Source of the DNA: Myxococcota bacterium
Lineage (GTDB): Bacteria > Myxococcota > XYA12-FULL-58-9 > JALHOP01
Assembly: GCA_041288095.1 (NCBI GenBank)
Contig: JBGGMJ010000136.1
Location: 1-64,000, forward strand
Direction: 5' to 3'
Length of the DNA: 64,000 nt
Positions 1,645 through 28,159 of this stretch are shown here, piece after piece. The notes under the pieces are model-generated. The model had not been told where the DNA came from, did no database searches, and saw nothing but the letters and a program-made list of their open reading frames with translations. Within the stretch, counting starts at the first letter, position 1. The number at the start of each line of letters is the position of its first letter. A program made the position numbers and the translations under genes.

Positions 1645-1671
1645 GTATCGGGTCGGGGTGCCTTTCGTTGC
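1645..1671 (-). promoter_or_regulatory. sigma-28-like promoter motif
   Basis: minus strand GCAA-cgaaaggcaccccga(15)-CCCGATAC, 24 nt upstream of GTG 1620. Confidence 0.65.
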
Positions 1672-1721
1672 GCGAAATGGCCCGAGGAGGCCTGACGCTG
1701 GGTCACAGGCGCCAATCGGGC

Positions 1722-1760
1722 AAAAAAAAACGCCCGGTCATGCGAGCATGCCGGGCGTTT
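1722..1760 (-). terminator. rho-independent terminator of rpsU
   Basis: stem AAACGCCCGG/CCGGGCGTTT with a 9-nt A-run on plus (U-tract on minus) just downstream of rpsU. Confidence 0.8.
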
Positions 1761-1779
1761 CTCTTCGTAACCTGGAAGC

Positions 1780-1977
1780 TTAGCGACGCGCGCGGTTCGC
1801 GCTGCGGCGGCGGCGCTTTTCAGCGCTGCGCTGCTTCTCCTTCTTGCGAATGGAGGGCTTCAGGTAGTGCTCGCGGCGGCGAACTTCCTTGAGGATGCCA
1901 GCAGCTTCGACCTTCTTCTTGAAGCGCTTCAGAGCCTTCTCGAACGGCTCGCCTTCTTTGACGACAACTTTCGTCAT
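1780..1977 (-). CDS. rpsU: 30S ribosomal protein bS21
   Basis: [52 protein letters not shown] Shine-Dalgarno upstream. Confidence 0.97.
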
Positions 1978-2089
1978 ATGCACTCACCTCCTTCGCGATG
2001 GATTTCGGCCACGTCGATGGACGTCGAGCCGGGGCGCGTGGATACCGGACTCGCCGAGGCCCGGCAAGTCGAAACGGGTCGCTCGCCGC

Positions 2090-3721
2090 TCAATCGTCGC
2101 GCATCGGCACCGAAACACCGGGTGGGGCGATGCCGCGCGGCTCGCGCAGAGCTTGGTCGCCGAAGGCCTCACGGTACTCGCCACGCAAGATGCTCTGATA
2201 GCCGTCGTAGGTGCCATCGGCCCGCATGCGGTCGCGCATCGTCGACTCGAAGCCGCCGGTCAACGCCAGGAGATTGAGGAACGTGCCGTCGACCGTCTTC
2301 ATGGGTACCGATTGCCGGCCGTCGTTGGTGACCGCCTCGCCGCCGCCGATTGACGTCACCGCATGCCGCGCGCGCAGGCCGTTGAGCAGCCACGCGAGGC
2401 CCTCGCGTCCGCCATCGCGACCTGACTGCTCGAGCAGCACCGGGAAGACACCATAGAGCGCGTAGAACGGATGGTCGGTCACTGGCTCGCGCGCGATGCT
2501 GGGGATGCCGTGGTCGATGGCGTAGCCGCCGCTCGGCGAGTTGATCGAGGCGCCGAAGCCGGGCTTGGCTCTGCGAACCGCGTCGTTGGTGCGGATCTCC
2601 TGTCGGATGCGAAACAGGTCGCGGTATTCGGGCAGGTCACGCTTGGGCATGATCGCGAACTCCCACTCCTCGTGCGACGAGCCCCAGAAGCCCTGCCAGG
2701 TCGTGCCGTCCTGGTGCTCGACCCGCTCCATGCGCGTCTGCGCCCACATGCGCTCGACCTGTGTCCGCGATAGCGGCGGGCGCGCGTAGAGGCTCATGAA
2801 GTGCAGCATCATCGCGCCTTCATGCACGCCGTGCTCGGCGCGGATGAAGCCGTATGGGTAGCCTTCGTAGGCGACGTTGGCGTCGCGGTTGTTGCTGATG
2901 CGCGTCTGGTCGCGAACCGCGTTGACGTTCTCGTCGAAGAAGACCCGGCGGACGTTGTTCGCGAGCAGGTCGTTGAAGCCGCGGTAGCGATCCGCCAGGG
3001 CGGTGTGGCCCTGCTGGCGTAACGCGTGCTCGACGCCGAGCAGCACGAACGCCCACTCACCATTGTCGAGCGCCGGTACGTGGCGCTGCCAGTAGCTGTC
3101 CGAGGGCTCGACGCTGCCGTCGTCGCGGAGCACGACCCAGGGCATGAAGCCTCCGTAGCCGGGATACTCGCGGGCGAAGCGCTCGTAGGTGGCAAGCTTG
3201 CGCTCCAAGATACGCAGCACCTCGGCCTGCGCATCGACCGGCATGAGGCGCAGCGCCAAGGGGTCGCGCTCGAGGATCTTCACCAACAGCGCGAGGTCTA
3301 GGCACTCCTTGGCAGGCACCGTCCAGGAACGCTGGCTCGCGGGCTCACGCGTCGCCGGGTCGAGATTCACGCCGTCGACGGCGAGTCCCGTGCGAGCGTC
3401 GCGTGCCAGGCGGAAGAACGGGGCCTCGGCGGTGAAGTAGTCCTCGACGAAAGCCCGCGCTCGCACCGGGTCACGCAGCACCTCGTCGACCGTATAATCG
3501 AGCGGAAACCTCCCGGGGGTCGCGCTGCGCATCGTCGGGGCCGGGAGGCTCAGGGCCTGCGCCATGCGCGTACCGCGCATGAGCCGCCGCCAGCCCTCCA
3601 CCCGCGTGTCATCCGACACCGTGGGCGCCAAGGGACGCTCCGGAGGCCGCGTTGTACCCGAATCGAATGGGCCAGGGATGACATGCGGCGAGCGTGTCAC
3701 CCGCCCGACGTCGTCTGCCAT
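2090..3721 (-). CDS. putative endo-beta-1,2-glucanase, GH162-like, with unstructured N-terminal extension
   Basis: motifs YPGYGGFMPW, VPALDNGEW, HEG, GFWGSSHEEW, PGFGASIN, GIPSIA, YGVFPVLL and TVDG parallel, in order, my recollection of fungal GH162 (TfSGL-type) sequences. Confidence 0.7.
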   Translation of the reverse strand: MADDVGRVTRSPHVIPGPFDSGTTRPPERPLAPTVSDDTRVEGWRRLMRGTRMAQALSLPAPTMRSATPGRFPLDYTVDEVLRDPVRARAFVEDYFTAEAPFFRLARDARTGLAVDGVNLDPATREPASQRSWTVPAKECLDLALLVKILERDPLALRLMPVDAQAEVLRILERKLATYERFAREYPGYGGFMPWVVLRDDGSVEPSDSYWQRHVPALDNGEWAFVLLGVEHALRQQGHTALADRYRGFNDLLANNVRRVFFDENVNAVRDQTRISNNRDANVAYEGYPYGFIRAEHGVHEGAMMLHFMSLYARPPLSRTQVERMWAQTRMERVEHQDGTTWQGFWGSSHEEWEFAIMPKRDLPEYRDLFRIRQEIRTNDAVRRAKPGFGASINSPSGGYAIDHGIPSIAREPVTDHPFYALYGVFPVLLEQSGRDGGREGLAWLLNGLRARHAVTSIGGGEAVTNDGRQSVPMKTVDGTFLNLLALTGGFESTMRDRMRADGTYDGYQSILRGEYREAFGDQALREPRGIAPPGVSVPMRDD

Positions 3722-3768
3722 GGATATGAGCCTGAATGGAGGAAGAGAAGCGGAAGGAGTGGCTCACG

Positions 3769-3796
3769 TTATCGCGGCGGTTCACGGGGGCGTTGC
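3769..3796 (-). promoter_or_regulatory. sigma-28-like promoter motif (16-nt spacer)
   Basis: minus strand GCAA-cgcccccgtgaaccgc(16)-CGCGATAA upstream of the GH162-like gene; overlaps the stop region of the upstream kinase. Confidence 0.5.
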
Positions 3797-5854
3797 TTGG
3801 GGCTGCGTCGGCTCGTCGGCGAGCCGCGCCAATGTGCGAACCAGCTCGATCGGCACGCACGGCTTGGCCATGTGCGCATCGAACCCGGCACCCAAGGCGT
3901 CGGCGACGTCGGATTGGCGAGCGTAGGCGCTGAGAGCCAACGCGGGCACACGGTGCTCCCCCTGCTCGCTGCGCAAGCGACGCATGAAGGTGTAGCCGTC
4001 TTCGCTTGGCATGCCGATGTCGGAGACGACGACGTCGACCCTCGGGCCGGCGAGCTTGATGCGGCCCTCGGACGCAGATCCAGCGAGCGAAACCTGGGCC
4101 CCTGCCCGCTCCAGTACGCCACGCACGACCTCGCGAGCATCCGGCTCGTCGTCGACGACCAGCACATGCAGCCCGGTGAGCGCATCGCCCAGCGTAATCG
4201 GCTTGCTCGGGCTCCTGGTAAGCCCATGGGCTCGAGCATCGCGGAGTCGTACCGTGAAGAGCGCTCCAGCTCCGCGACCGGCGCTCTCGGCGGTGACGCG
4301 CCCGCCATGCAGCTCGACGAGGTGGCGAACGATGGCGAGCCCGAGACCCAGACCACCGTGCGCGCGCGTGCTGATGCGATCCGCCTGATAGAAACGGTCG
4401 AAGACACGGGGCAAGAAGCTCGGATCGATCCCGACTCCGTTGTCGCGGACACTGATGCAGACCTCGCCATCGCAGCGTTGGACACTGACGTGGATGACTC
4501 CGCCCTCGGGCGTGAACTTCACGGCGTTCGAGAGCAGATTCAGCACGATCTGGTGCATGCGGCTCTCGTCGACGTTGATGTAGATCGATTCGTCGAGGTC
4601 GGCGGTCAGCGTTTGCTTCTTGGTTTCGACGGTCGGCCGCACGGAGTCGAGCGCCGAGCCGACGAGCGCGGCGAGATGGGTATCCGTTCGCACCAGCTCG
4701 AGCTTCCCCGCGATGATGCGGCTGATGTCGAGCAGATCGTTGATCACCAGCGCCTGGGCGCGTGCGTTCCGATCCAGCGCATCGATGGCGCGCGCCTGTT
4801 TGTCGGGCGGCAAGCGCCCGTCGCGCATCAGATGCAGGTAGCCCATGATGGCATTGAGCGGCGTGCGCAGCTCGTGGCTCACCATGGCGAGAAAGTCGTC
4901 CTTGGCCTGATTTGCGCGCTCGGCTTCGGCTCGCGCCGCGCGTTCGCTCGCGAGGAAGTCCTTACGCTCACGCTCGAGCTTCACGTGCGCGGTGATGTCG
5001 TAGCCATGGACGAGGATGCCCGAAACTACACCGGCCGCGTCGCGGACCGGCTGGTAGGCAAAGTCGAGAAACACTTCTTCGAGCACGTCATCGCGCCGCA
5101 GCACGACGCGCTCGGCGTGCCCGTAATACGGGACACCGGTCGAGAAGACCCGATCGAGGAGGCGGATGTAGCCCTGCGACGCCACCTCCGGCAGCACCTC
5201 GGTAACGCTGCGCCCGACGATGTTGCCTGGGTCGTCGGTACGGCCGATCAGGCGCATGTAGCTATCGTTCGCGATCTCGAAGATGTGACGGGGCCCGCGC
5301 ACGAAGGTCATGAAACCGGGTGTGTGACGGAAGACGCGCAGCAGGTGCAGGCGTTGCTGGTCGGCGAGGTCCTTGTCTGCTTCGGCGGTGCGAGCACGTC
5401 CCAGCACCGCGGCCCCCCACTGTGTGTGATCGGCTCGCTCGTGAGCGCTCGCGCGACGGAGCTCGGTCACATCGACGGTGTGCTGCAGCACCGCGGTAAC
5501 CCGCCCTTTCGCATCGCGCAGGGGCGCGTGCGTCGCGCTCCAGAAGCGTTCGCGGACGACGATCTCGCCGCCGACGTGCATCGGCACCTTGTAAGGAATG
5601 AAGGCGAGCTCGTCCGGCTTACCCGTCGTGAGCACGCGCTCGAGGGAGCGGCGTAGGGCCTGAGCGCTCTCGTTGTTGGGCTTGGTCGAGTCATTGGGGA
5701 AGACGTCGAAGACACGACGGCCGGCGAGGTCTTCCCAGCGGCTCGCGGTCACGCGCAGATAAGCCGGGTTGGCCGCAATGAAGCGCAGCTCCGCGTCCAC
5801 CACGACATAGGGGTTGGGCGATGCGGCGAAGAGGGCCTCGAAATCGATCTGCAT
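3782..5854 (-). CDS. hybrid sensor histidine kinase (PAS-PAS-HisKA-HATPase-REC), cytoplasmic
   Basis: two PAS_4-like segments, H-box SHELRTPL, N-box NLLSNAVKFT, G-boxes DNGVG and GGLGLGL, C-terminal receiver VVDD..SDIGMP..KP. Confidence 0.93.
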   Translation of the reverse strand: MQIDFEALFAASPNPYVVVDAELRFIAANPAYLRVTASRWEDLAGRRVFDVFPNDSTKPNNESAQALRRSLERVLTTGKPDELAFIPYKVPMHVGGEIVVRERFWSATHAPLRDAKGRVTAVLQHTVDVTELRRASAHERADHTQWGAAVLGRARTAEADKDLADQQRLHLLRVFRHTPGFMTFVRGPRHIFEIANDSYMRLIGRTDDPGNIVGRSVTEVLPEVASQGYIRLLDRVFSTGVPYYGHAERVVLRRDDVLEEVFLDFAYQPVRDAAGVVSGILVHGYDITAHVKLERERKDFLASERAARAEAERANQAKDDFLAMVSHELRTPLNAIMGYLHLMRDGRLPPDKQARAIDALDRNARAQALVINDLLDISRIIAGKLELVRTDTHLAALVGSALDSVRPTVETKKQTLTADLDESIYINVDESRMHQIVLNLLSNAVKFTPEGGVIHVSVQRCDGEVCISVRDNGVGIDPSFLPRVFDRFYQADRISTRAHGGLGLGLAIVRHLVELHGGRVTAESAGRGAGALFTVRLRDARAHGLTRSPSKPITLGDALTGLHVLVVDDEPDAREVVRGVLERAGAQVSLAGSASEGRIKLAGPRVDVVVSDIGMPSEDGYTFMRRLRSEQGEHRVPALALSAYARQSDVADALGAGFDAHMAKPCVPIELVRTLARLADEPTQPQATPP

Positions 5855-5903
5855 GCGGGCGTCGGATTCTGGCGAAGATAAGCACCTTCGCCGGAAGCAC
5901 CAG

Positions 5904-7742
5904 CTAGACCCGCACTCCGATGCCGGTCACCCGGACGAGCTCGTCGAAGGTCGTGATGCCGGTCCGCAGCCGGTCGAGCGCCGAGTCTCGCAGCGGGCGC
6001 ATGCCACTTGCCACGGCCTTGTCGCGGAGCTGCTCTTCGGGGACACCTGCTTGCAACGCGCCGGTGAGGTCCTTGGTGGCGCTCAACATCTCGAAAATAC
6101 CGACGCGGCCGTAGTAGCCGGTGCCCCGACAGTGGACGCAGCCCGCGCCTTCGCAGACCCCACCGTAGGCGGCGCGCTCGCTCTCCGGAATGCCGAGGAT
6201 GAGGAGCTCGTCGCCGCTGAGCGCCGCTGGCCCCTTGCAGTGCGGACAGATCCGCCGCAGCAGACGCTGCGCCATCACCCCAACCAGCGTCGAGCTGATG
6301 AGGAACGGCTCGACCCCGAGATCGACCAAACGCGTCACCGCGCCAACCGTGTCGTTGGTGTGCAACGTGCTGAACACCAGATGGCCGGTAAGCGCGGCCT
6401 CGACCGCCATTTGCGCGGTCTCACCGTCGCGGATCTCGCCGATCATGATGATGTCGGGATCCTGGCGGAGGATGCTGCGCATGGCGCTCGCGAAATCGAC
6501 ACCGATCTTCGGCTGCGCCTGCATCTGATTGAAGGCGTCGGTGACCATTTCGATCGGGTCCTCGACGGTGGTGACGTTGACGTCGTCCCCCGCGAGCCGG
6601 CGCAGCGTGGTGTAGAGCGTCGTCGTTTTGCCGCTGCCGGTCGGGCCGGTGATCAAGACGAGCCCGTGAGGCTCGGCGATCCAGCGCTCGAAGGTCTGCT
6701 GATCGTCGGTCTCGAAGCCGAGGTCCGGCAGCTCTTGCAGGAGGACCCCGGGGTCGAAGATGCGGATGACGATCTTCTCGCCGAACGCCACCGGGATACA
6801 GGAGACGCGAAGCTCGACCTCTTTGTCCGCTAGAACGGTCTTGATGCGTCCGTCTTGAGGCCGGCGTTTCTCGGCGATGTCCATGCGCGCGATGGTCTTG
6901 AGACGCGACGCGATGGCCGGGTGCACACGCTTCGGAATGGTGTGGACGTTGTGCAGCACGCCGTCGATGCGCAGGCGGACCTGCGAGTCGCCCTTGCGCG
7001 GCTCGATGTGGATGTCGCTCGCGCGTTGGTCGAAGGCATAGCGAAAGAGGAAGTCGACGGCGTTGACGACCGGCTGGTCGCTGCCCTCGATCTCTCCGAC
7101 GTTGCGCAGCTTCACCAGCTGTTCGAAGTCGCCCGACGCGGCGGATCCCGAGCTTTCCCTGGCGGCCGACTCGACGCTCTTGCGGAAGCCGTAGATCTCG
7201 GTGATCGACTTGAGAATGTCGCGTTTGCTGGCGACGACGCGCTTGAGCTTGCCTGGGTAGATGCGCCGCAGGTTCTCGATGACCTCGACGTCGAATGGAT
7301 TGTCGACCGCGATGGTCAGCTCACCGTTGCCCTCGGCGAGCGGCAGCACCACGTGCCGCAACGCGAATGGCCGCGATAGCGTACGCGTAATGAGCTGCAT
7401 GTCGAGCTCGAGCGGGTCGACCTTCTTGTACCCGAGCTGCGACTTGGCGGCGACCACCTGGGCGAGCTTGTCCTCGTCGAGCTCACCGCCGCGCCGATCG
7501 GCCAGCTTGAACGACGCCACCAGCTCGGCCGGGCTCACGGCATAATGCGCCCCCGCCGGCAGGTCGCCGCTCCCGAGCACCTGTTTGATCACCCTCGCCC
7601 GCTGCTCGCGCTGCTGGACCTCGACGCTCTTACGCTGCTCGGCGTCGATGATCTGGTTGCGCTCGAGGACATCGAGCAGCCATTCGACGGAGTACGTCGC
7701 TTGGCTGACCTTTTGGGGCGCGGCTGGCGTCGTGGAGCTCAA
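5904..7742 (-). CDS. GspE/PilB family secretion/pilus ATPase
   Basis: ASDIHIEP, RRPQDGR, Walker A GPTGSGKTTT, TVEDPIE, LRQDPDIIMIGEIRD, GHLVFSTLHTND, CxxC..CxxC. Confidence 0.93.
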   Translation of the reverse strand: MSSTTPAAPQKVSQATYSVEWLLDVLERNQIIDAEQRKSVEVQQREQRARVIKQVLGSGDLPAGAHYAVSPAELVASFKLADRRGGELDEDKLAQVVAAKSQLGYKKVDPLELDMQLITRTLSRPFALRHVVLPLAEGNGELTIAVDNPFDVEVIENLRRIYPGKLKRVVASKRDILKSITEIYGFRKSVESAARESSGSAASGDFEQLVKLRNVGEIEGSDQPVVNAVDFLFRYAFDQRASDIHIEPRKGDSQVRLRIDGVLHNVHTIPKRVHPAIASRLKTIARMDIAEKRRPQDGRIKTVLADKEVELRVSCIPVAFGEKIVIRIFDPGVLLQELPDLGFETDDQQTFERWIAEPHGLVLITGPTGSGKTTTLYTTLRRLAGDDVNVTTVEDPIEMVTDAFNQMQAQPKIGVDFASAMRSILRQDPDIIMIGEIRDGETAQMAVEAALTGHLVFSTLHTNDTVGAVTRLVDLGVEPFLISSTLVGVMAQRLLRRICPHCKGPAALSGDELLILGIPESERAAYGGVCEGAGCVHCRGTGYYGRVGIFEMLSATKDLTGALQAGVPEEQLRDKAVASGMRPLRDSALDRLRTGITTFDELVRVTGIGVRV

Positions 7743-7779
7743 GGCTCCCGCAGCTTAACACGGCCCCGACGTGGGTGCT

Positions 7780-8178
7780 CTAGCGAGCCGGCGCGATCAT
7801 GTTGCCGGTGTCGAGCGCGTCTTTGCCGGCGAAGACGAGGTTCCAGTACCAGCCGGTGACGGGCTCGAAGGCTGCCAGGGCACCCAGGCCGATGCTCGCC
7901 GCGCCAGACTTGAAGAACATGAACGCCGCGTCACGTTGACCGTCCTTCAGCGCCGCGACCGAAAAACCGAGCTTGGCGACGCCGTAAGTCATCGACGTCC
8001 AACCACCGATGACCGCAAGACCGGGAACGCAGCTCGCGCCCTGGGTGACGGCGTTGCCGGCGTTGATAGCGGCGCTGAAGTTGCGTGCGAGGTAGTTGCT
8101 GTTGATCTCGCTGCGCGACGGGCGGTCGATGTCGGTGAGGACGAGAAGCTGACGAATGGGATTGGTGGTCAAGGCCAT
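7780..8178 (-). CDS. small hydrophobic Gly/Ala-rich hypothetical protein
   Basis: 132-aa ORF filling the gap, GGAG upstream of ATG, hydrophobic C-terminal half. Confidence 0.65.
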   Translation of the reverse strand: MALTTNPIRQLLVLTDIDRPSRSEINSNYLARNFSAAINAGNAVTQGASCVPGLAVIGGWTSMTYGVAKLGFSVAALKDGQRDAAFMFFKSGAASIGLGALAAFEPVTGWYWNLVFAGKDALDTGNMIAPAR

Positions 8179-8193
8179 GAACGGACTCCGAGC

Positions 8194-8221
8194 GTATGGG
8201 CGGCCCCAATAGCGCTGTTGA
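8194..8221 (-). promoter_or_regulatory. weaker sigma-28-like promoter motif
   Basis: minus strand TCAA-cagcgctattggggcc(16)-GCCCATAC upstream of ATG 8178. Confidence 0.35.
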
Positions 8222-8291
8222 TGTCCGCGATTTTCGTCGGCGCGCGCGTGATGGTGCGTGCCCTGCAGTGCCTGGCGGTCACCGCACCCTG

Positions 8292-9629: not shown

Positions 9630-9639
9630 CGGGATACCG

Positions 9640-9667
9640 ATTCTAACGGCCGTGGGGGGCCGGTCAA
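9640..9667 (-). promoter_or_regulatory. sigma-70-type promoter
   Basis: minus strand TTGACC-N16-TAGAAT, 10 nt upstream of ATG 9629. Confidence 0.55.
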
Positions 9668-9692
9668 GCGACCTGGAGAAAGTTGCGATCGG

Positions 9693-14457: not shown

Positions 14458-14533
14458 GGAACCTCTGGCTCGCGGAGCTTCGCGAGACCCTGCTCATTAC
14501 CTCGGGGGTCCGACAACACGCGCCACGACCCCT

Positions 14534-15178: not shown

Positions 15179-15213
15179 GGGGGCTTCTCGCCTACTCTCC
15201 GGGCCCTAATAAA

Positions 15214-15240
15214 GCAACGGTAGCGGCCGTTTGCCGATGA
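15214..15240 (+). promoter_or_regulatory. sigma-28-like promoter motif
   Basis: GCAA-cggtagcggccgttt(15)-GCCGATGA, 7 nt before GTG 15248. Confidence 0.6.
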
Positions 15241-15247
15241 TGAGGAC

Positions 15248-16291
15248 GTGGAAGTCGACAATCACCGGCGGGTCGCCGCCAAGGTTCTCACGCAGGGCCC
15301 AGCCAACGCCCAGCTAGACCTCGCGAGCGCCGTAAGCCCCCCCCCGATGTGGCGAGCCGTGAGCATCCCCGACTCCCGCGCCCTCGCGACCGCCCGCCCC
15401 GAAGAGCTCGAGAGCTTCGGCTGCCGAGGCAAGGTCGCTATCGCCAACAAGGACCAGATCCTCGACGATATCTGGCACAAGCTCGGCGGCAAGCCCCGGT
15501 TCATCTACGGCCTCGCCGAGGTGGGCAGCGACTACGGCCACGCTTTCTGCGCCTTCGAGATGGAGAATCCGAAGACCGGCAAGCACGAATTCATGGTGCC
15601 GAACATCGTCGGAGTGCCCGGCTCGAAGATGGTCCAATGGATCTCGCTCACCGAGTACCTCTTCGGCGTCAACGACTTCAAAGATGCCAATCGCCAGCGC
15701 GGTTTTTACAATCGCCCTTACACCCTGGTCGCGCTCAACGACCCGAAGATCGACGTCGACGCCTGCCGCGACTACTTCCTCGACCTCGCAAAGCGCCACC
15801 AAGCCGGGACGGCGAAGTTCTCGCTGGTGCTGCCGCGCATCCGCAACGTCCTGCGCGCGCCGCTGCACGCCCTCGGCCTGCCCTACTGTGAATACGGCAA
15901 CTGCGCCCGGTGGAACTTTGAGGCCATGAAAGCGGCGAAGATCTTCCCCAGCGAGATCCACCTCGGAAACTTCTTCACGCACAACACCATGTGGCCCAAG
16001 CGCACCGCCGTTCGCTTGCTCGACGGCCTGTCGCACGTGGCGCGCGACGATGTCCGAGTCGTCCATCTCGAGCGCCCGCCGCATGCCCAGCTCAGCGCGA
16101 AGGGTAAGAGCGAAGGTCGCACCTACGTGAACGTCTTCACCCGCATCGCCGATCTCTTCGGCATCGTGACCGCCCGCGGCCGCCACTACGCGCACCTCTC
16201 CGAGCTCGCGCACGTGCGCGTCCACGTGCCCAAGGACACCATCACCGCGCACACCGAGACCCGTACCCCCAAAGCGCTAGCGGCGGCCTAA
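15248..16291 (+). CDS. hypothetical protein, possible circularly permuted papain-like (His-before-Cys) hydrolase
   Basis: 347-aa ORF with GC3-rich codons; YGHAF near the N-terminus and YGNCARW later; function is inference. Confidence 0.65.
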   Translation: MEVDNHRRVAAKVLTQGPANAQLDLASAVSPPPMWRAVSIPDSRALATARPEELESFGCRGKVAIANKDQILDDIWHKLGGKPRFIYGLAEVGSDYGHAFCAFEMENPKTGKHEFMVPNIVGVPGSKMVQWISLTEYLFGVNDFKDANRQRGFYNRPYTLVALNDPKIDVDACRDYFLDLAKRHQAGTAKFSLVLPRIRNVLRAPLHALGLPYCEYGNCARWNFEAMKAAKIFPSEIHLGNFFTHNTMWPKRTAVRLLDGLSHVARDDVRVVHLERPPHAQLSAKGKSEGRTYVNVFTRIADLFGIVTARGRHYAHLSELAHVRVHVPKDTITAHTETRTPKALAAA

Positions 16292-17197: not shown

Positions 17198-17242
17198 GAC
17201 ACGATCTTAACGCCACCGCCCGACAGGCGGTAATAGTTGGTC

Positions 17243-20043: not shown

Positions 20044-20047
20044 CACG

Positions 20048-20866
<819 letters not shown>

Positions 20867-20908
20867 GTCGTGCGGCTACTTAGAGGACCAGCACGGCATG
20901 GTCAATCG

Positions 20909-21733
20909 ATGAACGAGGACTTCTCGCACGAGCTCGAGGTCGCCAAGCGCTTGGCGCGAGTGGCCGGCGCCCGCATTCTCGCGCACTACAACGACGGCTT
21001 CGCGGTGGAGTACAAAGGCCACGGCGATCCCGTGACGCAGGCCGATCGCGACGCGAACCACATCATCGTCGAGGGTCTGGCCGCGGCCTTTCCGACGGAC
21101 GCGATCCTCGCCGAGGAATCGAAGAACAGCGACAGCCGGCACGCGCACGCGCGCTTGTGGTGCGTCGACCCGCTCGACGGCACGCAGGAGCTGGTGAATC
21201 GCAACGGTGAGTTCGCGGTGATGATCGGGCTCGCTGTACGCGGAGAGGCGCGCGTCGGCGTCGTCTATCAGCCCACCGAAGACACGCTTTGGGCCGGCGC
21301 CGGCACCTTGGCGACGGTCGAGCGCCACGGCGGTCCGCCAACGCGGATCAAGCCGACGCAGTGCATCGATCCCGCCAAGGCCGTGCTCGTGGGCTCGCGC
21401 TCGCACACGTCGAAGTCGGTCGTCGAGGTCGCGACGACGTTGGGCGTCGCCCGCCAGGACCGCTTGGGCAGCGTCGGTCTCAAGATGGCCCGCGTCGCCG
21501 AGGGCGGTGCCGACCTGTACCTCTCGATGTCGACGCAGACGCACGAGTGGGATGGCTGCGCGCCGGAAGCGATCCTCCGCGCCGCCGGTGGCTTCGTGAC
21601 CGACTGCTTCGGCGCCCCGCTGCGCTACAACAAGCAGACGACAGGCACGCCGCGCGGCATGTTAGCCACGAACGGACTCATCCACGCAGCCGTTTTGGCG
21701 GCTGCGCGGACGGTTGTTGAACAACGATTCTGA
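20909..21733 (+). CDS. cysQ: 3'(2'),5'-bisphosphate nucleotidase CysQ / inositol monophosphatase family
   Basis: PVTQAD, AEES, WCVDPLDGT, SRSH, GSVGLK, EWDGCAP. Confidence 0.85.
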   Translation: MNEDFSHELEVAKRLARVAGARILAHYNDGFAVEYKGHGDPVTQADRDANHIIVEGLAAAFPTDAILAEESKNSDSRHAHARLWCVDPLDGTQELVNRNGEFAVMIGLAVRGEARVGVVYQPTEDTLWAGAGTLATVERHGGPPTRIKPTQCIDPAKAVLVGSRSHTSKSVVEVATTLGVARQDRLGSVGLKMARVAEGGADLYLSMSTQTHEWDGCAPEAILRAAGGFVTDCFGAPLRYNKQTTGTPRGMLATNGLIHAAVLAAARTVVEQRF

Positions 21734-21797
21734 GGTACTGCGGAGCCACTGCGGTGCAAGACCGCCGGTACTACTGCACGCTCGAGGTCGTTTGCTG

Positions 21798-22028
21798 TTA
21801 CGCGCGCTTCTTTGGGCTGACCAGCATCATCGCCTGGGCGACGTTGCGCTGTGCGCCACGCTGAAGAAGAGCACGCCCTTGCATGAGCTTCTTCTCGTCC
21901 TTGGCAGCCTTGTTGAGCGCTTCAGTCGTCCCACCGCTGTTCAAAGCGGCCGCCCGTTGCTCGGCATGAGCGCCCGCCAAGGGCGTGCCGACTGGGCGAA
22001 TGGGTGATGAAAGCGATCCCGAAATCAT
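21798..22028 (-). CDS. small basic hypothetical protein
   Basis: 76-aa ORF with GGGAG upstream and two promoter-like motifs. Confidence 0.55.
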   Translation of the reverse strand: MISGSLSSPIRPVGTPLAGAHAEQRAAALNSGGTTEALNKAAKDEKKLMQGRALLQRGAQRNVAQAMMLVSPKKRA

Positions 22029-22062
22029 GACACTAACTCCCGACAGGCTCGTCTCGCGTTGT

Positions 22063-22089
22063 GTATCGGCCGCCAGCGCGCAAAGTTGC
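22063..22089 (-). promoter_or_regulatory. sigma-28-like promoter motif
   Basis: minus strand GCAA-ctttgcgcgctggcg(15)-GCCGATAC. Confidence 0.68.
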
Positions 22090-22102
22090 GCCCCGTGTTG
22101 GA

Positions 22103-22128
22103 TTATCGCGGCTTTTTTGAGTCGTTGT
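22103..22128 (-). promoter_or_regulatory. second tandem sigma-28-like motif (14-nt spacer)
   Basis: minus strand ACAA-cgactcaaaaaagc(14)-CGCGATAA. Confidence 0.35.
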
Positions 22129-22216
22129 GCTGAAATGCGAGTCGGGACGCGCGTCTACGAGGGCACCCCTAGAACCGGTTTGGCGCGCTTCTGGCAACGA
22201 CACAGCGTGAGGGTGC

Positions 22217-22726
22217 CTAACGGGGCTTCTGAACGCGCGCCGCGAGTTGCGAAACGAAGCCGACGCCGGCGGACGTTCCTGGGATAACGCGGCGGGCTGT
22301 ACCCAAAAGCGACGCGCTCCCCGACATGTCGCGGTCCTCGTTCAGCGCGCTCGCCGAGAGGACGCGGTTAGCCGCGGCACCAAGCTCTTGCGACCAGGCT
22401 TCCAGGGAGAGCCCCAGGGCGGTGGCCGTCCGCGGGAGGTCACTGATCCAGGCGCTCAGGTGGCCGAGTTGCAGCGGTGTGAGCTCCGCATCGCCAACCC
22501 GCGTGAGAACCACGCCCGGAGCACTGTGCTCGGCGTCCACCAGCAGCCCGATGACGCATTCGACACTGACTTCGGCGACTTCGCCAACGAGCTGCCGCAC
22601 CAGGGGCGCATCGAGGCGTGACCGCGACTGCAACAGCTGCTTGGCAGCGGCGTCGACATTGGCAGCGGCGCCCCATCCGAGCACCGCTTCCTGGACCGAA
22701 CGATGAATGTGCTGGCGCTTCGCCAT
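22217..22726 (-). CDS. hypothetical protein
   Basis: 169-aa ORF starting 5 nt after the stop of the 22732 gene. Confidence 0.6.
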   Translation of the reverse strand: MAKRQHIHRSVQEAVLGWGAAANVDAAAKQLLQSRSRLDAPLVRQLVGEVAEVSVECVIGLLVDAEHSAPGVVLTRVGDAELTPLQLGHLSAWISDLPRTATALGLSLEAWSQELGAAANRVLSASALNEDRDMSGSASLLGTARRVIPGTSAGVGFVSQLAARVQKPR

Positions 22727-22731
22727 GAGGG

Positions 22732-23061
22732 TCAGTAGCGGCTACGCGTCAAATCGCCGCGCTTGCTCTGCAAGGCCGCGAGACTGAGGGGGCTCGGGGC
22801 GAGCGCCCACGAAACGACCGTGCCCACGACCGCGGCCTTCAGCCAGCCACCGAGCAACATCACCGTACCGAACGCGCCGGTGCCGGTGAGGACGAAAGCG
22901 GTCGCCGCGGCAGCGGCGCCGAGGAGCAGGATCTTGGTCTGGAATGAAGCGTCCTTGGGGGTCGCGACCTTCGCAATCGTTCCCATGTAGCCGCCGGTTG
23001 CGACTCCCACCAACACGCTCGCCGTCGCCCGCAACGCATCCGTCTTGCTCATCAACGCCAT
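22732..23061 (-). CDS. small hydrophobic Gly/Ala-rich membrane protein
   Basis: ATG 23061 with AAGGAG; GVATGGYMG and LLLGAAAAATAFVLTGTGAFG hydrophobic segments. Confidence 0.7.
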   Translation of the reverse strand: MALMSKTDALRATASVLVGVATGGYMGTIAKVATPKDASFQTKILLLGAAAAATAFVLTGTGAFGTVMLLGGWLKAAVVGTVVSWALAPSPLSLAALQSKRGDLTRSRY

Positions 23062-23084
23062 GACGCAACTCTCCTTGAGCGTCG

Positions 23085-23111
23085 TTATCGTTGCCGAGCT
23101 GGAAGGGTTGC
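23085..23111 (-). promoter_or_regulatory. sigma-28-like promoter motif
   Basis: minus strand GCAA-cccttccagctcggc(15)-AACGATAA. Confidence 0.58.
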
Positions 23112-23173
23112 GCATCCCGCCTCCGCCAGCGCGTCACGATCGAGGGGACGCGCTGGCGGCACCGCCGATGCAC

Positions 23174-23200
23174 GCACATTCGGGGGGGTGCTCCCGATAT
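23174..23200 (+). promoter_or_regulatory. sigma-28-like promoter motif
   Basis: GCAC-attcgggggggtgct(15)-CCCGATAT. Confidence 0.55.
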
Positions 23201-23231
23201 TGCACGAGCCTCGCCGCCCCGAGGATTCGAC

Positions 23232-23642
23232 ATGCAGATTCGCGCAGCCATCGATAAAGCTCTCCGCCTCACCGAGTTCGACACGATCCGTCCGAGTGAG
23301 CTGATCGAGCCGGGGCAGGCGCGTCAGCGCACGATGCAGAACAACGTGCTCAACGGCTTCATGTACGGCGTCAACGCGTTCGTGCCGATGTCGGGCGTCA
23401 TCCTCAATCCGCTGGTCGCCTTCGGCAAGTCCTGCGGCGCCATGTGGCAGATGATGCTGGCGATGAGCTTCCCGGAACAGGGAGGTGAGGCGCGCATGAA
23501 CCTCGCCGGTGACCTGCTCAAGTCCGCCGGCGAGAACTTCGTCGTCGGCGCCGCCTCGTGCCTCCCGGGCGCGGGTCCGGTGATCGCCGGCCTCTGGTCG
23601 GCGCGCAGCTTCGTCGACGCCAACCGCGCGCTCAAAACCTAG
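23232..23642 (+). CDS. small hydrophobic hypothetical protein
   Basis: ATG 23232 with GAGGA; MQIRAAIDKALRL..CLPGAGPVIAGLW. Confidence 0.7.
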   Translation: MQIRAAIDKALRLTEFDTIRPSELIEPGQARQRTMQNNVLNGFMYGVNAFVPMSGVILNPLVAFGKSCGAMWQMMLAMSFPEQGGEARMNLAGDLLKSAGENFVVGAASCLPGAGPVIAGLWSARSFVDANRALKT

Positions 23643-23661
23643 AGTCGCCCGGGCGGAGCTG

Positions 23662-24606
23662 TCAGCCGCCCTGTGCCTGCGGTGGGGCTCCCGCCGCTGG
23701 CGGGGCCTGCTTGTTCTTCTCGGCAAGCTCCATGGCCTGCAGGTAGGTCTTCGCCTGGCTCGCGTACTTGGTGCGGGCCGCGATGATCTCACCCAAGACG
23801 CGGCGCGCCTCGTCGACCTTCTGGGTCTGGGCGAGCGAAGCGCCCAGCAAGAAGCGAATCTCCTCGCGCAGCGACGGGTCGCGGATGTTCGAGAGATCAC
23901 GCAAGACCGGCTCGGCCTCGTCGTAGCGCTTCAAGCTGAAGAGCTCGGTGGCGAGCAAGTAGCGAACGTTGACGACGTAGCGGAAGTTCGGGTCGAGCGA
24001 CAGCGACTTCTTCAGCATGTCGACCGCTTCAGCGGACCGACCGCTGGTCTCGGCGAGCTTACGGCCCTGCTCGTACGCGTCTTCGGCGGCCTTCTTGCGC
24101 AGGTCGCCGACGCGCTTCTCCATGAGGCGCGCCTCGAGCTCGGTGAGGGTCGTGAGGTTCACCTGGTCGAGCATGTCGACGGCGCCCTTCTCGTTGCCCT
24201 GGTCGAGCAGGTCCAAGACCTTCTTGCTCACCGAGGCTGAGTCGATCGCCTTCTTCTTCTGAGCGTCGAGCTCGGCCAGGCGCCGGTTCAGATCTTCGCT
24301 CTGCTTCTGCGCGGAGTCGCGAGCCTGCTGGGCATCGCCCTGGGCGCGCTCGGCGTCGGCGATGTAGCTGCGCGAGCGGGCCGAGAAGACGAGGTACGCC
24401 GCGATGGTGATGACGAGGCCGACGAAGACGTTGACCGCGAGGCTGGTGAACTTACCGCGCTTCTCGATCTGCTCGAAGCGGCGCTCGAAGTTCTTCACGT
24501 CGAGCGATAGGTTCTTCACCTGGTTGTCGGCTTTGATCACGGTGTTGCGCGTCTCGAGAACCTCGCGCTTCAGGTCGACCAGCTCCTTGCCCGTCGTCTC
24601 ATCCAT
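23662..24606 (-). CDS. membrane-anchored coiled-coil/TPR protein
   Basis: coiled coil, one TM (LAVNVFVGLVITIAAYLVF), C-terminal TPRs. Confidence 0.8.
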   Translation of the reverse strand: MDETTGKELVDLKREVLETRNTVIKADNQVKNLSLDVKNFERRFEQIEKRGKFTSLAVNVFVGLVITIAAYLVFSARSRSYIADAERAQGDAQQARDSAQKQSEDLNRRLAELDAQKKKAIDSASVSKKVLDLLDQGNEKGAVDMLDQVNLTTLTELEARLMEKRVGDLRKKAAEDAYEQGRKLAETSGRSAEAVDMLKKSLSLDPNFRYVVNVRYLLATELFSLKRYDEAEPVLRDLSNIRDPSLREEIRFLLGASLAQTQKVDEARRVLGEIIAARTKYASQAKTYLQAMELAEKNKQAPPAAGAPPQAQGG

Positions 24607-24648
24607 GATTTCTCCCCCGTGCCGTAGCAAGTTCGCGGTGATCGGTGA

Positions 24649-24721
24649 TGGGTGGTGCGAGATTCGAACTCGCGACCAACGGATTAAAAGTCCGCTGCTC
24701 TACCGACTGAGCTAACCACCC
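24649..24721 (-). tRNA. tRNA-Lys(UUU), CCA not encoded
   Basis: GGGTGGTTAGCTCAGTCGGTAGAGCAGCGGACTTTTAATCCGTTGGTCGCGAGTTCGAATCTCGCACCACCCA. Confidence 0.96.
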
Positions 24722-24787
24722 TCGAAGGCGGCGCAACCTACTCGGCGCCACGCGATGGGTCAATGCGCTCTAGGCGATCGTTTGGCC

Positions 24788-25180
24788 CTATTTCACCGTG
24801 CCGGCGCGCTTCTTCTCGAGGAGCCGCTCCAGCTTGCGGAACAACACCGCGAACTGCAGCGGCTTGGTCTCGTAGTCGTCGGCGCCGAGCTCGAGGCCGA
24901 CGATACGATCACTTTGGCTGTCGCGCGCCGTCAGGAAGACCACCACGGCGTTCTTGAGCGCGCCAGTCGCATTCCAACGCTTTAGCAGATCGCGACCGTC
25001 GACCCCCGGCAGTTGCACGTCGAGGAGGACGACGTCCGGGACCTCCTTCTCCACTTCCTCGAGTGCGCGCGGACCAGTGTCGGCGACGCGTGTGCTGTAG
25101 CCGCGTGAGGTGCCGAACTTCGACAGCGCAAGCGCGATCTCGGGGTCGTCTTCGACGATGAGCAACGAGGCGGGAGGCAC
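24788..25180 (-). CDS. single-domain response regulator
   Basis: LLIVEDD, LLDVQLPGVDG, FLTAR, GADDYETKP; start approximate. Confidence 0.88.
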   Translation of the reverse strand: MPPASLLIVEDDPEIALALSKFGTSRGYSTRVADTGPRALEEVEKEVPDVVLLDVQLPGVDGRDLLKRWNATGALKNAVVVFLTARDSQSDRIVGLELGADDYETKPLQFAVLFRKLERLLEKKRAGTVK

Positions 25181-25246
25181 GCCTTCAACTATTCCGTAAG
25201 TGGCGGATCTTCTCAACTCCCGCTGGATCCGGTAGGACCCACGCCC

Positions 25247-26428
25247 ATGAAAGAAGTCGTCATTCTCTCGGCCGCACGCACTCCCATTGGCTCGCTCTTG
25301 GGTACGCTCTCTTCGCTACCCGCGCCCCGATTGGGCGCCGTCGCCATCAAAGCCGCCATCGAGCGCGCAGGCATCGACCCCGCCGCCCTCGACCAAGTCC
25401 TCATGGGTAACGTGCTGCAGGCCGGTGTGGGCCAAGCACCCGCGCGCCAGGCGATGCGCTACGCCGGCGTGCCCGACAAGGTCGGCGCCATCACGGTCAA
25501 CAAGGTGTGCGGCTCGGGTATGCGCGCCATCATGGACGGCGTGAACAGCATCAAGGTCGGCGAGTACGACATGGTCGTCGCCGGCGGCATGGAGTCGATG
25601 TCCAACGCTCCGCACATGGTCCCGGGCTCGCGCCGCGGCACCAAGATGGGCGATTGGAAGATGGTCGACGCGATGATCATCGACGGCCTCTGGGACCCGT
25701 ACGGCAACAAGCACATGGGCAACTGCGGCGAGCTCTGCGCCGCGAAGTACAAGCTCACCCGCGAGATGCAGGACGCCTTCGCGCTCGAGTCGTTCAACCG
25801 CGCCAAGGCCGCGATCACGAGCGGCCACTTCAAGAACGAGATCGTCGCCGTCGAGATCGCCGACAAGAAAGGCTCGAAGCTCATCGATCAAGACGAGAAC
25901 CCTATGTCGGCGCCGCTCGAGAAGATGGCATCGCTCAAGCCGGCCTTCGATCCCAACGGCACCATCACCGCCGCCAACGCACCGCCGGTCAACGACGGCG
26001 CCGCGGCGTTGGTGATCGCTTCGGCGGACAAGGCGAAGGCGCTCGGCAAGAAGCCGCTGGCGAAGATCGTAGCCCAGGGCTCGTTCGCGCAGGAGCCGGA
26101 CTGGTTCACCACCGCGCCTTCACAGGCCGCCAAGCTGGCGCTCAGCCGCGCCGGTCTCACCACCAAGGACATCGGCCGCTGGGAAGTGAACGAGGCCTTC
26201 GCTGTCGTCGCCATGGCCTTCATGCGCGACATGGAAGTCGATCACGCCAAGGTCAATGTCCACGGTGGCGCCGTGGCCCTCGGTCATCCCATTGGCGCCT
26301 CGGGCGCGCGCATCGTCACGACACTCGTGCACGAGCTCATCGCCAGCAAGCAGCGTTACGGCGTCGCGGCGATTTGCCTAGGCGGCGGCGAAGGCACCGC
26401 CTTGGTCATTGAGAACTTAGCGCTCTGA
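25247..26428 (+). CDS. acetyl-CoA C-acetyltransferase (thiolase)
   Basis: NKVCGSG, GGMESMS, NEAF, GHPIGASG, CLGGG. Confidence 0.95.
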   Translation: MKEVVILSAARTPIGSLLGTLSSLPAPRLGAVAIKAAIERAGIDPAALDQVLMGNVLQAGVGQAPARQAMRYAGVPDKVGAITVNKVCGSGMRAIMDGVNSIKVGEYDMVVAGGMESMSNAPHMVPGSRRGTKMGDWKMVDAMIIDGLWDPYGNKHMGNCGELCAAKYKLTREMQDAFALESFNRAKAAITSGHFKNEIVAVEIADKKGSKLIDQDENPMSAPLEKMASLKPAFDPNGTITAANAPPVNDGAAALVIASADKAKALGKKPLAKIVAQGSFAQEPDWFTTAPSQAAKLALSRAGLTTKDIGRWEVNEAFAVVAMAFMRDMEVDHAKVNVHGGAVALGHPIGASGARIVTTLVHELIASKQRYGVAAICLGGGEGTALVIENLAL

Positions 26429-26708
26429 TGCCGTGGCGGCGACGTTCCTGCGCCGCGGCCCAGTCTTCTTCGAAGCGCTCTTCGAGCGCCGCGCCATACA
26501 CGCGGCGCATGATGGTCTGAACGAGCTCGAGCGGCATGCCGCGCTTGTCGCCATGGCCAATCAGGCCGCGCAGCGCGTCCCGACGCTGGCCGTCGCGCAG
26601 CCGCGCCTCCAAATCGGTCTCCCCGTCCTCGGGGCCCGAGCGGAAGAACTCGATGTCGCTGGTCGCACGGTCGATGAATCCAGGGGGAAGGGCGGCAAAA
26701 GCACTCAC
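26406..26708 (-). CDS. small hypothetical protein
   Basis: GTG 26708 preceded by AAGGAGG; a CCCGATAA -10-like box at 26801-26808. Confidence 0.55.
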   Translation of the reverse strand: MSAFAALPPGFIDRATSDIEFFRSGPEDGETDLEARLRDGQRRDALRGLIGHGDKRGMPLELVQTIMRRVYGAALEERFEEDWAAAQERRRHGIRALSSQ

Positions 26709-26918
26709 GGTTGCCTCCTTTGGGGTGGCCGAGATGTGGATGTGTTGCACGGCGTGAGTGCAGCACACGTGCCACGCCAACCACGTACTCCGCACCCCTC
26801 TTATCGGGATAACGAAGGTTTCTCGGGGAGTGAGGCCCGCGATCTGAGGAGCGCTGGAGGGCCGCTTTTCACCCAGATCGACCGTTCCGCGGGCGTACGC
26901 CGCCCCGCCCCCTTCGAG

Positions 26919-26945
26919 GCAACTCGGTCGGGCTACCGCCGATAT
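26919..26945 (+). promoter_or_regulatory. sigma-28-like promoter motif
   Basis: GCAA-ctcggtcgggctacc(15)-GCCGATAT, 17 nt before ATG 26963. Confidence 0.68.
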
Positions 26946-26962
26946 GAACTAGACCCCGTACC

Positions 26963-28138: not shown

Positions 28139-28159
28139 TCGCTTATTCTTTGGCTACCG

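Follow-up and report, generated by a model that had tools for sequence, protein, structure and literature searches.

The DNA considered here (hereafter the window) makes up the initial 64 kb of the 80-kb contig C136, which belongs to the metagenome-assembled genome (MAG) of a Myxococcota bacterium designated G000 (5.85 Mb in 212 contigs, 66% G+C, completeness 89.98%); the sequencing runs found to contain its positions 19000–28500 are metagenomes of soil and cave DNA only. Its first 27 kb carry a series of two-box elements of the type GCAAC-N15/16-CCGATA, located in front of genes whose products mostly belong to no Pfam family, and this element is, as judged from its sequence properties, a real promoter signal that combines the −10 box and the spacing characteristic of sigma-28 promoters with a variant −35 box.

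Genes were defined by a crude caller of our own making (4991 genes, coverage 92.7%, intergenic DNA amounting to ~7% of the genome). Sites were scored with a two-block position matrix trained on the motif sites of G000 itself; the 99th percentile of shuffled upstream regions lies at 11.5, a score of at least 18 defines a strong site, and sites were counted as upstream and co-oriented up to 400 nt from the gene. The comparison set consists of 40 relatives of G000 (41 genomes in all), G001–G003 being members of the same genus. The sites of the window, most of which had been pointed out in an earlier reading of the letters alone (the sequence-only reading), and the genes that follow them are:

1646..1671, minus strand: predicted promoter GCAAC-N15-CCGATA(C), score 22.6, past the rpsU terminator and 26 nt before the GTG at 1620
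121..1620, minus strand: target, 499-aa orphan, no Pfam family
3770..3796, minus strand: predicted promoter GCAAC-N16-GCGATAA, score 21.0
2090..3721, minus strand: target, 543-aa orphan with its ATG at 3721, no Pfam family
8232..8257, minus strand: predicted promoter GCACC-N15-GACGAAAA, score 20.2, 54 nt before the start at 8178, missed by the sequence-only reading
7780..8178, minus strand: target, 132-aa orphan, no Pfam family
15214..15240, plus strand: predicted promoter GCAAC-N15-GCCGATGA, score 22.1, GTG start 9 nt past the hexamer
15248..16291, plus strand: target, 347-aa orphan, no Pfam family
22064..22089, minus strand: predicted promoter GCAAC-N15-GCCGATAC, score 24.2, the strongest of the window
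22104..22128, minus strand: weaker tandem predicted promoter ACAAC-N14-GCGATAA, score 15.0, −10 box kept in the three congeners
21798..22028, minus strand: target, 76-aa polar open reading frame (ORF), start region conserved in the genus
23086..23111, minus strand: predicted promoter GCAAC-N15-AACGATAA, score 22.5, conserved in G002, locus missing or replaced in G001 and G003
22732..23061, minus strand: target, 109-aa orphan, no Pfam family
22217..22726, minus strand: 169-aa orphan, the next gene after the 109-aa target, no Pfam family
23174..23199, plus strand: weak candidate promoter GCACA-N15-CCCGATAT, score 14.2, partly conserved in G002
23232..23642, plus strand: possible target, 136-aa orphan, no Pfam family
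26919..26944, plus strand: predicted promoter GCAAC-N15-GCCGATAT, score 21.2, boxes kept in G001, G002 and G003
26963..28138, plus strand: target, 391 aa with a C-terminal LAS-type domain, no Pfam family

The motif sequences that the sequence-only reading had reported are present in the window where it placed them. Six of its eight main sites are strong (21.0–24.2), that at 23174 is weak, and that at 8194–8221 scores below 12 and had to be abandoned, the strong site at 8232–8257(−) standing 40 nt from it before the same gene. As to the three matches that it had considered weaker, the tandem element at 22104–22128(−) was retained, being conserved in the genus, and those at 17207–17233 and 26801–26808, both below 12, were dropped. 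The matrix scan gave no site of at least 18 between 27 and 64 kb of the window. All seven targets of the window that were tested lack a Pfam family, compared with 5 of 22 other genes; the 499-aa orphan was found, among 5.8 billion proteins, to match itself and a single 81%-identical homologue, and a Protein Atlas search with two window targets yielded sub-threshold leads only (scores 0.76–0.85). The mRNA starting from the promoter at 15214 is probably leaderless, in view of the position of its GTG. At this site both boxes are retained in G002 and G003 with a changed spacer, and at 22064–22089 neither box differs in G001, G002 or G003, although the spacer has diverged. The segment 22157–23249, with its orphans and promoters, is conserved in G002 and missing or replaced in G001 and G003; since the flanking genes remain syntenic, the targets appear to turn over quickly.

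The statistics of the motif leave little room for chance. In the window GCAA-N17-CGATA occurs four times against 0.25 expected, a number reached in none of 100 shuffles, and the genome contains 81 copies of GCAAC-N15-CCGATA and 36 of the N16 form (117 exact sites in total), compared with 0–4 for each of nine other spacings between 10 and 20. Eight of the 117 exact sites lie inside called genes; of the 116 followed by a gene, 109 are co-oriented with it and 7 are not, hexamer and start codon being separated by a median of ~48 nt. The same signal emerges from the 2954 upstream regions without any prior: a scan of all 4-mer/gap/4-mer combinations ranks CAAC-N17-GATA first (120 occurrences vs 8.1 at other spacings), and the most strand-biased words of upstream DNA are CGATAA and CCGATA. 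With the matrix, 427 of the 2954 regions exceed the 99th percentile of the shuffles, where 30 would be expected; the 204 counted on the opposite strand above the same threshold are largely accounted for by divergent neighbours. At a score of at least 18 the genome holds 373 sites, 310 of them upstream and co-oriented and 42 intragenic, and at a score of at least 20 the upstream and co-oriented fraction rises to 215/236. A clustering of the sites into islands was considered and discarded, the strong sites being spread over 20-kb bins in a Poisson-like manner (mean 1.05, variance 1.11).

The consensus of the matrix is (a/g)C-GCAAC-N15/16-(G)CCGATA(A/C). In its −10 block the successive columns are G 59%, C 63%, C 98%, G 99%, A 100%, T 79%, A 84% and A 55% or C 27%, and in its −35 block G 81%, C 84%, A 92%, A 77% and C 97%; the spacer between GCAAC and CCGATA is 15 nt in 287 of the 427 matrix sites and 16 nt in 135 and remains 15 or 16 nt when counted between GCAA and GCCGATAA, in keeping with the 15-nt spacing of the sigma-28 class. 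The −10 element is identical to that of this class, GCCGATAA, extended GC included. The −35 element is not the TAAA(G) of the class, being cGCAAC instead, and the canonical box TAAA-N15-GCCGATA is not enriched in the genome (6 occurrences at the right spacing vs 1–6 elsewhere). The upstream regions without the motif display a weak signal of another type, TTGAC-N18-TAGA. In all these respects, namely an occurrence above background with a strand bias, a sigma-28-like −10 box and spacing with a deviating −35 box, housekeeping promoters of a different type, and a programme scattered over the whole genome, the expectations of the sequence-only reading were borne out.

Comparison with the three congeners, in which synteny is retained at 78–86% DNA identity, revealed that in orthologous sites the −35 and −10 boxes are unchanged and the spacers have accumulated many substitutions; the motif is not a repeat, because neither its spacers nor its flanks are conserved. 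The position of the start codons is equally informative, the sigma-28 class being expected to start transcription about 7–8 nt past the −10 octamer. There is an excess of ATG at offsets 9–11 past the hexamer (11, 17 and 16 vs about 4–6), and 35 of the 310 called starts fall 9–13 nt past the hexamer, followed by a near-empty zone at 14–19. In the sigma-28 promoter of Pseudomonas aeruginosa fliC the −10 box spans −15 to −8, according to the accessible text of PMC12784957, and the ATG peak fits leaderless mRNAs that would start ~8–10 nt past the hexamer, as predicted from this geometry.

To characterize the regulon, the 40 stretches richest in targets were analysed, comparing 122 targets (score at least 18) with 122 controls from the same stretches, which are part of 150 drawn at random from 292 eligible genes (upstream region of at least 40 nt, matrix score below 10). 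No Pfam family (E ≤ 1e-5) was found for 85/122 targets (70%) and for 44/122 controls (36%; Fisher p = 2e-7). Thus, the earlier claim that the motif stands before orphans holds as an enrichment and fails as an exclusive rule, hydrolases being prominent among the 37 annotated targets, which, as claimed, are non-flagellar. There are 12 peptidases (M14, S8 twice, S41, S9 twice, M64, M1, M4 twice, C26 and VanY) among the targets vs 4 among the controls (p = 0.067), and other annotated targets include two serpins, a lipase, a PHB depolymerase, a beta-lactamase-fold protein, a GH3 protein and two alpha/beta hydrolases, as well as the plainly cytoplasmic enzymes UvrC, ketopantoate hydroxymethyltransferase, class IV aminotransferase and UbiA prenyltransferase. 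One target elsewhere in the genome, of 4157 aa (L028:574-13047, G000:C190), carries dynein-type AAA_5 and VWA domains.

The target proteins share an unusual N-terminus. Sec-type signals, as scored by a heuristic of our own, are present in 13/308 targets (4%) vs 404/2416 controls (17%; p = 1e-10), and lipoboxes and multi-pass membrane proteins are likewise less frequent. In the proteins without a Sec-type signal, residues 2–25 are enriched in P (1.56x), Q (1.36x) and S (1.29x), and also in Asn and Thr, and depleted in L (0.76x) and C (0.39x), and also in Phe, Tyr, Lys, Asp and Glu, so that the fraction of S, T, P, Q and N within this segment is 0.29 in targets vs 0.21 in controls (p = 4e-26). 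This shift, which is found in both Pfam-positive and Pfam-negative targets, fades deeper into the protein, and the codons of the polar N-termini have a coding-like G+C content at third positions; the depletion of cysteine, in contrast, extends over the full length of the targets (0.58x). Polar stretches of this kind, and not signal peptides, open the target peptidases, and enzymes that are usually secreted (M4 with its FTP propeptide, S8, M14, GH3, LAS peptidase) are encountered among the targets without Sec signals.

The 391-aa target of the window illustrates what the orphans may conceal. For this protein, which has no Sec signal and a disordered N-terminus, 33 homologues of full length are known, every one of them encoded by an uncultured genome of Myxococcota type, and its profile gave nothing meaningful against solved chains. 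The AlphaFold2 model has a mean predicted local distance difference test score (pLDDT) of 88.5 (below 50 for residues 1–17), and a Foldseek search with it returned no row at E ≤ 0.001. On the other hand, the top 14 rows of VIA-align (Z 7.0–5.2), which concern residues 243–370, are LAS peptidases, endolysins or the Hedgehog N-domain; VanX comes first (Z 7.0, root-mean-square deviation 2.8, 102 aligned residues), and VanXY, 1lbu, LdcB, VanY, phage endolysins and MepA are among the matches, all Z scores being moderate. The metal-ligand pattern of LAS enzymes is H-x6-D followed by a later His, and H294, D301, H336 and H338 do not vary among 44 sequences compared. It is because of VIA-align that the LAS fold is assigned; the predicted structure thus presents both the fold and the ligand pattern, and by this model some at least of the "orphan" targets are disguised cell-wall hydrolases.

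A search for FliA/WhiG-family sigma genes, which the sequence-only reading had recommended, retrieved two. Among the 36 proteins of G000 with a match to sigma region 2, TIGR02479 (FliA/WhiG) is the best model for a 294-aa protein encoded at G000:C92:35188-36072, hereafter sigmaC92 (163.7 bits), and for a 275-aa protein encoded on contig C127 (~166 bits), the closest solved relatives of both being FliA and WhiG. In sigmaC92, D118, F128, R134 and R149 correspond to D66, Y76, R82 and R97 of P. aeruginosa FliA, which read the −10 and extended −10 elements, and these residues vary little or not at all among 11 orthologues. In its region 4.2, S271 corresponds to the conserved S224, but Q228, which contacts the −35 box, is replaced by Arg275, so that the Ser and Gln pair of FliA is not preserved; the recognition helix is invariant in the 11 orthologues, down to 43% identity. 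The homologues of sigmaC92 at E ≤ 1e-20 number 1262; those listed stem without exception from metagenomes or MAGs, their label being "sigma-70 family" or, in the case of the Joint Genome Institute, "FliA".

The gene of sigmaC92 closes a conserved row that encodes proteins of 111 aa, 185 aa (needle family), 138 aa (TPR) and 159 aa and then the sigma factor, an operon conserved in all 10 loci that were inspected. The 185-aa gene has a matrix site in front of it in G000, G001, G009, G040 and G029 (22.7 in the last), and in G025 a site (22.3) immediately precedes the sigma gene itself, so that a site accompanies the operon in 6 of 11 genomes, G000, from which the matrix was derived, being one of them. 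The presence of the motif before sigmaC92's own operon points to positive autoregulation, whereby the factor would activate this operon through the preceding motif. For the 159-aa neighbour no family or solved-chain match was obtained and no FlgM was recognized beside sigmaC92; the full-length profiles of operon proteins (A1 and A2) gave nothing meaningful against solved chains.

The number of exact sites, judged against a reversed-pattern control of 0–7, varies widely among the genomes: 91–143 in the genus, mostly 17–60 in the order, with lower values in G007 (1), G012 (8) and G016 (12), 45 in G025, 17–53 in part of family f12, and about 0 in families f21 and f26. In family f17, which probably holds Myxococcus, 43 genomes have 0–12 sites, and the operon with its site is present there without expansion of the regulon. 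The orthologues of sigmaC92 (95–99% identity in the genus, 63–80% in the order, 68–69% in G025 and G034) follow the motif: an orthologue of at least 55% identity is found in 19 of the 22 relatives with at least 12 exact sites vs 3 of the 18 with fewer; the exceptions are G005, G016 and G022, where no such orthologue was found, and G007, G012 and G040, which have one in spite of their fewer sites. Outside the order, G025 and G034 are the sole genomes with strong enrichment and the sole ones with orthologues at 68–69%. Because related genomes are not independent, this phyletic association is to be taken as a pattern and not as a statistic.

The type III export genes of G000 (FlhA, FlhB, FliO/P/Q/R, FliM/N-like, FliK-like and YscO-like) are scattered over three contigs, and sigmaC92 lies ~25 kb from the fliOPQR row. 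No match to Flagellin_N was found in the 89.98%-complete genome, and no control of flagellar late genes is apparent, the targets being non-flagellar. The single flhA of G000 (C31:3248-8564) has in its vicinity a PP2C phosphatase and a 273-aa sigma factor with regions 1.2, 2 and 4. The 185-aa protein encoded by the first gene of the sigmaC92 operon ends in a conserved helix, and a profile (A4) made from the last 75 residues of 20 orthologues and paralogues matches 7y6c_F (4.3e-6), PrgI (3.8e-5), MxiH (1.3e-3) and YscF (1.4e-3), 30 of the 32 rows listed belonging to type III secretion (chains of needle, tip or other proteins). The needle-like domain occupies the extreme C-terminus, 16 of 16 proteins checked ending 1–4 residues past the end of the model, and PF09392 is matched at E ≤ 1 by 17/20 of these C-termini (best 2.4e-6). 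The proteins are larger than the 70–90 residues of a needle subunit, having 185–440 aa with long N-terminal extensions. G000 possesses, besides the operon gene, three further paralogues, two of which have a visible upstream region, and all three assessable needle-family genes are motif targets (21.3, 25.2 and 19.3). Finally, a small TPR protein encoded beside flhB matches the translocator chaperones PcrH (2.4e-9, full length) and IpgC, and the gene of this chaperone-like protein is followed by a motif target (site score 22.7).

It is rather probable that the motif is read by a FliA/WhiG-family alternative sigma factor in which the preferred −35 box has shifted from TAAA to GCAA(C), most likely sigmaC92, which is favoured as an autoregulated reader because its orthologues track the motif and a site precedes its operon; as such it would drive ~300–400 dispersed transcription units, i.e., ~6% of the genes. 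Several facts have to be set against this attribution. Neither sigma-28-like protein reaches the curated TIGR02479 cut-off of 189.6 bits; G005 (60 sites, 97% complete), G016 and G022 have the motif, with no sigmaC92 orthologue of at least 55% found; and G029 has the operon with a strong site, yet 5 exact sites in 9 Mb, from which, as from the 43 genomes of its family (f17), it follows that the sigma factor alone implies no large regulon. Furthermore, most relatives possess a third sigma-28-like gene located 2.5–4 kb from a second FHIPEP (flhA) gene (e.g., G001:C2:523499-528150 and G002:C2:136786-141437), and neither was found in the 90%-complete assembly of G000. That this third paralogue, or the C127 sigma, reads the same class of promoters is unlikely. 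The C127 sigma does have the slightly better TIGR02479 match (166.4 bits), has an 80-aa FlgM-family ORF directly 3′ (PF04316, E = 2.4e-7, 31.3 bits, cut-off 25), retains by alignment the equivalents of E. coli FliA D81, R84 and R91, and has a 59% orthologue in G005, where none of sigmaC92 was found. However, its orthologues of at least 40% are confined to 6 of the 40 relatives (G001–G003, G005, G006 and G012), the motif being enriched in 22; its recognition helix is nearly that of FliA, both the −35-contacting Ser and Gln of region 4.2 being kept, and this predicts the TAAA box that is not enriched; and there is no motif site near its gene, the third paralogue in turn being found in genomes with 0–9 sites (G024, G030–G032 and G038–G040). 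What precedes the C127 sigma gene, ~25 nt before its start at 21744, is a sigma-54-type box, TGGCAC-N5-TTGCT (L001:1265-1285, G000:C127), which suggests for this locus a putative cascade, from sigma-54 to sigma-28, of the kind found in polar flagellates. Recognition by an extracytoplasmic function (ECF, group 4) sigma factor instead of a sigma-28 relative is very improbable: ECF promoters commonly have a −35 box ending in AAC and a −10 box beginning with CG, and most of the 36 region-2 proteins are about 180–220 aa long, but the full extended sigma-28 −10 box (G)CCGATA(A) with its 15-nt spacing, the conserved autoregulatory site before the sigmaC92 operon of distant genomes, and the fact that no site has one of the 33 called sigma genes as its immediate downstream gene speak against it. 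It is hardly credible that the motif is no promoter at all and either serves a DNA-binding regulator as its operator or belongs to a dispersed repeat; a dimer might in principle bind two boxes at fixed spacing, but these boxes are unlike each other and directional, their spacers and flanks are unrelated, and the distances to the start codons, with their leaderless peak, fit a promoter.

If sigmaC92 is the reader, what does its regulon do? By analogy with the flagellar class-3 genes under FliA/FlgM and with the "hrp box" of HrpL, on which this step is based, the regulon could be the substrate set of a secretion system of type III (T3SS), a proposal that we put forward tentatively, at somewhat over a one-in-three chance. 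That a sigma factor with a changed −35 reading (Gln → Arg) switches on the whole Sec-less cargo of the system, ~300 proteins, is a possible but doubtful extension of the proposal; such a cargo would comprise the needle-family proteins, divergent as they are, along with proteases, serpins and cell-wall peptidases, and in addition about 200 orphans that evolve fast. A regulon that is real and unrelated to type III secretion, a growth-phase, predation or developmental programme whose products remain in the cell or leave it by lysis, vesicles or another secretion system, has a chance not far below even. The attack-phase programme of Bdellovibrio FliA offers a precedent for a sigma-28 regulon that is a life-style programme without being a secretion regulon, and many observations weigh on this side and against the substrate-set proposal: the apparatus genes have no strong sites, the only one (19.2) lying 382 nt before flhA; FHIPEP, present in 39 of the 41 genomes, does not track the motif and therefore cannot discriminate in favour of the type III link; plainly cytoplasmic enzymes are among the targets; the large genomes of family f17 carry the operon and a site with no enlarged regulon; the excess of peptidases is weak when taken alone; the PF09392 cut-off of 29.4 bits is reached nowhere in the 41 genomes (best 25–27 bits; 25.5, 21.6 and 17.6 in G000), and the operon needle-like protein of G000 has, taken alone, no PF09392 match; the TPR protein of the operon resembles generic TPRs only among solved chains; the Sec test and the gene calls are home-made; and to our knowledge ~300 type III substrates would exceed any known set. 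What an unrelated programme leaves unexplained is that the operon of the candidate sigma factor opens with a needle-family protein, that all the assessable needle-family paralogues are targets, and that normally secreted enzymes lack Sec signals and share with the other targets a polar N-terminus and a low cysteine content throughout.

Some further features may be recorded. In the window, 11977–14457(−) encodes an 826-aa ScpA homologue in which the ScpA domain covers residues 591–802 only, preceded by a long unexplained N-terminal extension; at 3782–7742(−) a hybrid PAS histidine kinase that carries a receiver domain adjoins a T2SSE/MshEN-type secretion ATPase, and the TPR protein encoded at 8292–9629 contains two cNMP-binding domains. 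A dispersed 21-nt element, AAATGGGGACACTAACCATTT, occurs with its reverse complement throughout the genome, with no copy in the window; the pattern AAATG-N11-CATTT is present 38 times (0–4 at other spacings), often as inverted pairs 25–55 nt apart (e.g., G000:C4:12476 and 12524, C9:34477 and 34503, C55:16586 and 16639), and it could be the site of a regulator or a small mobile element resembling repetitive extragenic palindromic sequences.

Sigma-28 is the textbook factor of flagellar late genes, and large non-flagellar sigma-28 regulons are known in few cases only, those of Bdellovibrio and WhiG. To these the present data add a variant promoter that marks ~6% of the genes of a non-flagellated bacterium from a predator phylum and a candidate sigma factor with a single plausible specificity change, Gln → Arg. 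What the sequence analysis points to is a sigma-28-family regulon with an altered −35 box, of exceptional size and in a non-flagellated lineage; in the openly accessible literature consulted no description of the motif, of sigmaC92 or of Myxococcota needle-family proteins was found. The motif brings together roughly 200 orphans per genome that are beyond the reach of homology-based annotation and can be applied to hundreds of Myxococcota MAGs.

With respect to HrpL, an ECF sigma factor that acts through a different box before the effector genes of plant-pathogenic Pseudomonas and Erwinia and whose targets are proven to be secreted, the logic is the same in that one alternative-sigma promoter precedes many unrelated, fast-evolving, Sec-less proteins and a type III export apparatus is present in G000; it was by this reasoning that sets of effectors were at one time deduced from genome sequences. 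The proteins described here, in contrast, are only presumed to be secreted. In size the regulon exceeds that of classical FliA about tenfold. As in the flagellar hierarchy, where sigma-28 controls the late substrates and not the machine, the strong sites avoid the apparatus genes. The canonical FliA/FlgM class 3 of E. coli, Salmonella and P. aeruginosa, as presented in the accessible text of PMC12784957, is matched in the −10 box GCCGATAA, the spacing and the −10-reading residues; unlike canonical FliA, the system described here has a different −35 box, the Gln → Arg replacement in sigmaC92 and a 159-aa protein where FlgM would be expected.

Streptomyces WhiG is controlled by RsiG and c-di-GMP and has a small regulon with a canonical box. 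It resembles the candidate described here in being a sigma-28-family factor recruited to a non-flagellar programme, at least as portrayed in the available portions of PMC8325347 and PMC13595943. A close parallel among promoters is found in Bdellovibrio bacteriovorus, where, as stated in the accessible text of PMC3627812, TTAAG-N16-CCGATA occurs at 92 of 140 attack-phase promoters, which serve proteases, surface proteins and many uncharacterized genes. The CCGATA −10 box, the 15/16-nt spacing, the large and mostly non-flagellar gene set and the predator lineage are common to both; Bdellovibrio, however, is flagellated and has the canonical TTAAG/TAAA −35 box and 92 mapped promoters, whereas the system of G000 has a cGCAAC −35 box, no flagellin that could be found and ~310 sites of at least 18, and is known from sequence alone.

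As regards secretion, the nearest relative would be the "Myxo" T3SS of Myxococcus xanthus, which belongs to the same phylum and has the same kind of export apparatus, FliO included (PMC12403147, accessible text). The myxobacterial T3SS has been placed as the earliest-branching non-flagellar system (PMC3459982), and the T3SS* of M. xanthus, called needle-less, is reported to be required for prey lysis (PMC10849154), both statements being taken from the portions available; within the accessible text of these three sources neither substrates nor a dedicated sigma factor are named for the M. xanthus system. Should the substrate-set proposal be true, the motif would directly identify the substrates that leave through the myxobacterial T3SS, supposedly "needle-less"; no other type III substrate set known would come near this one in size, and there would be a handle on what this ancestral system secretes and on how it is regulated.

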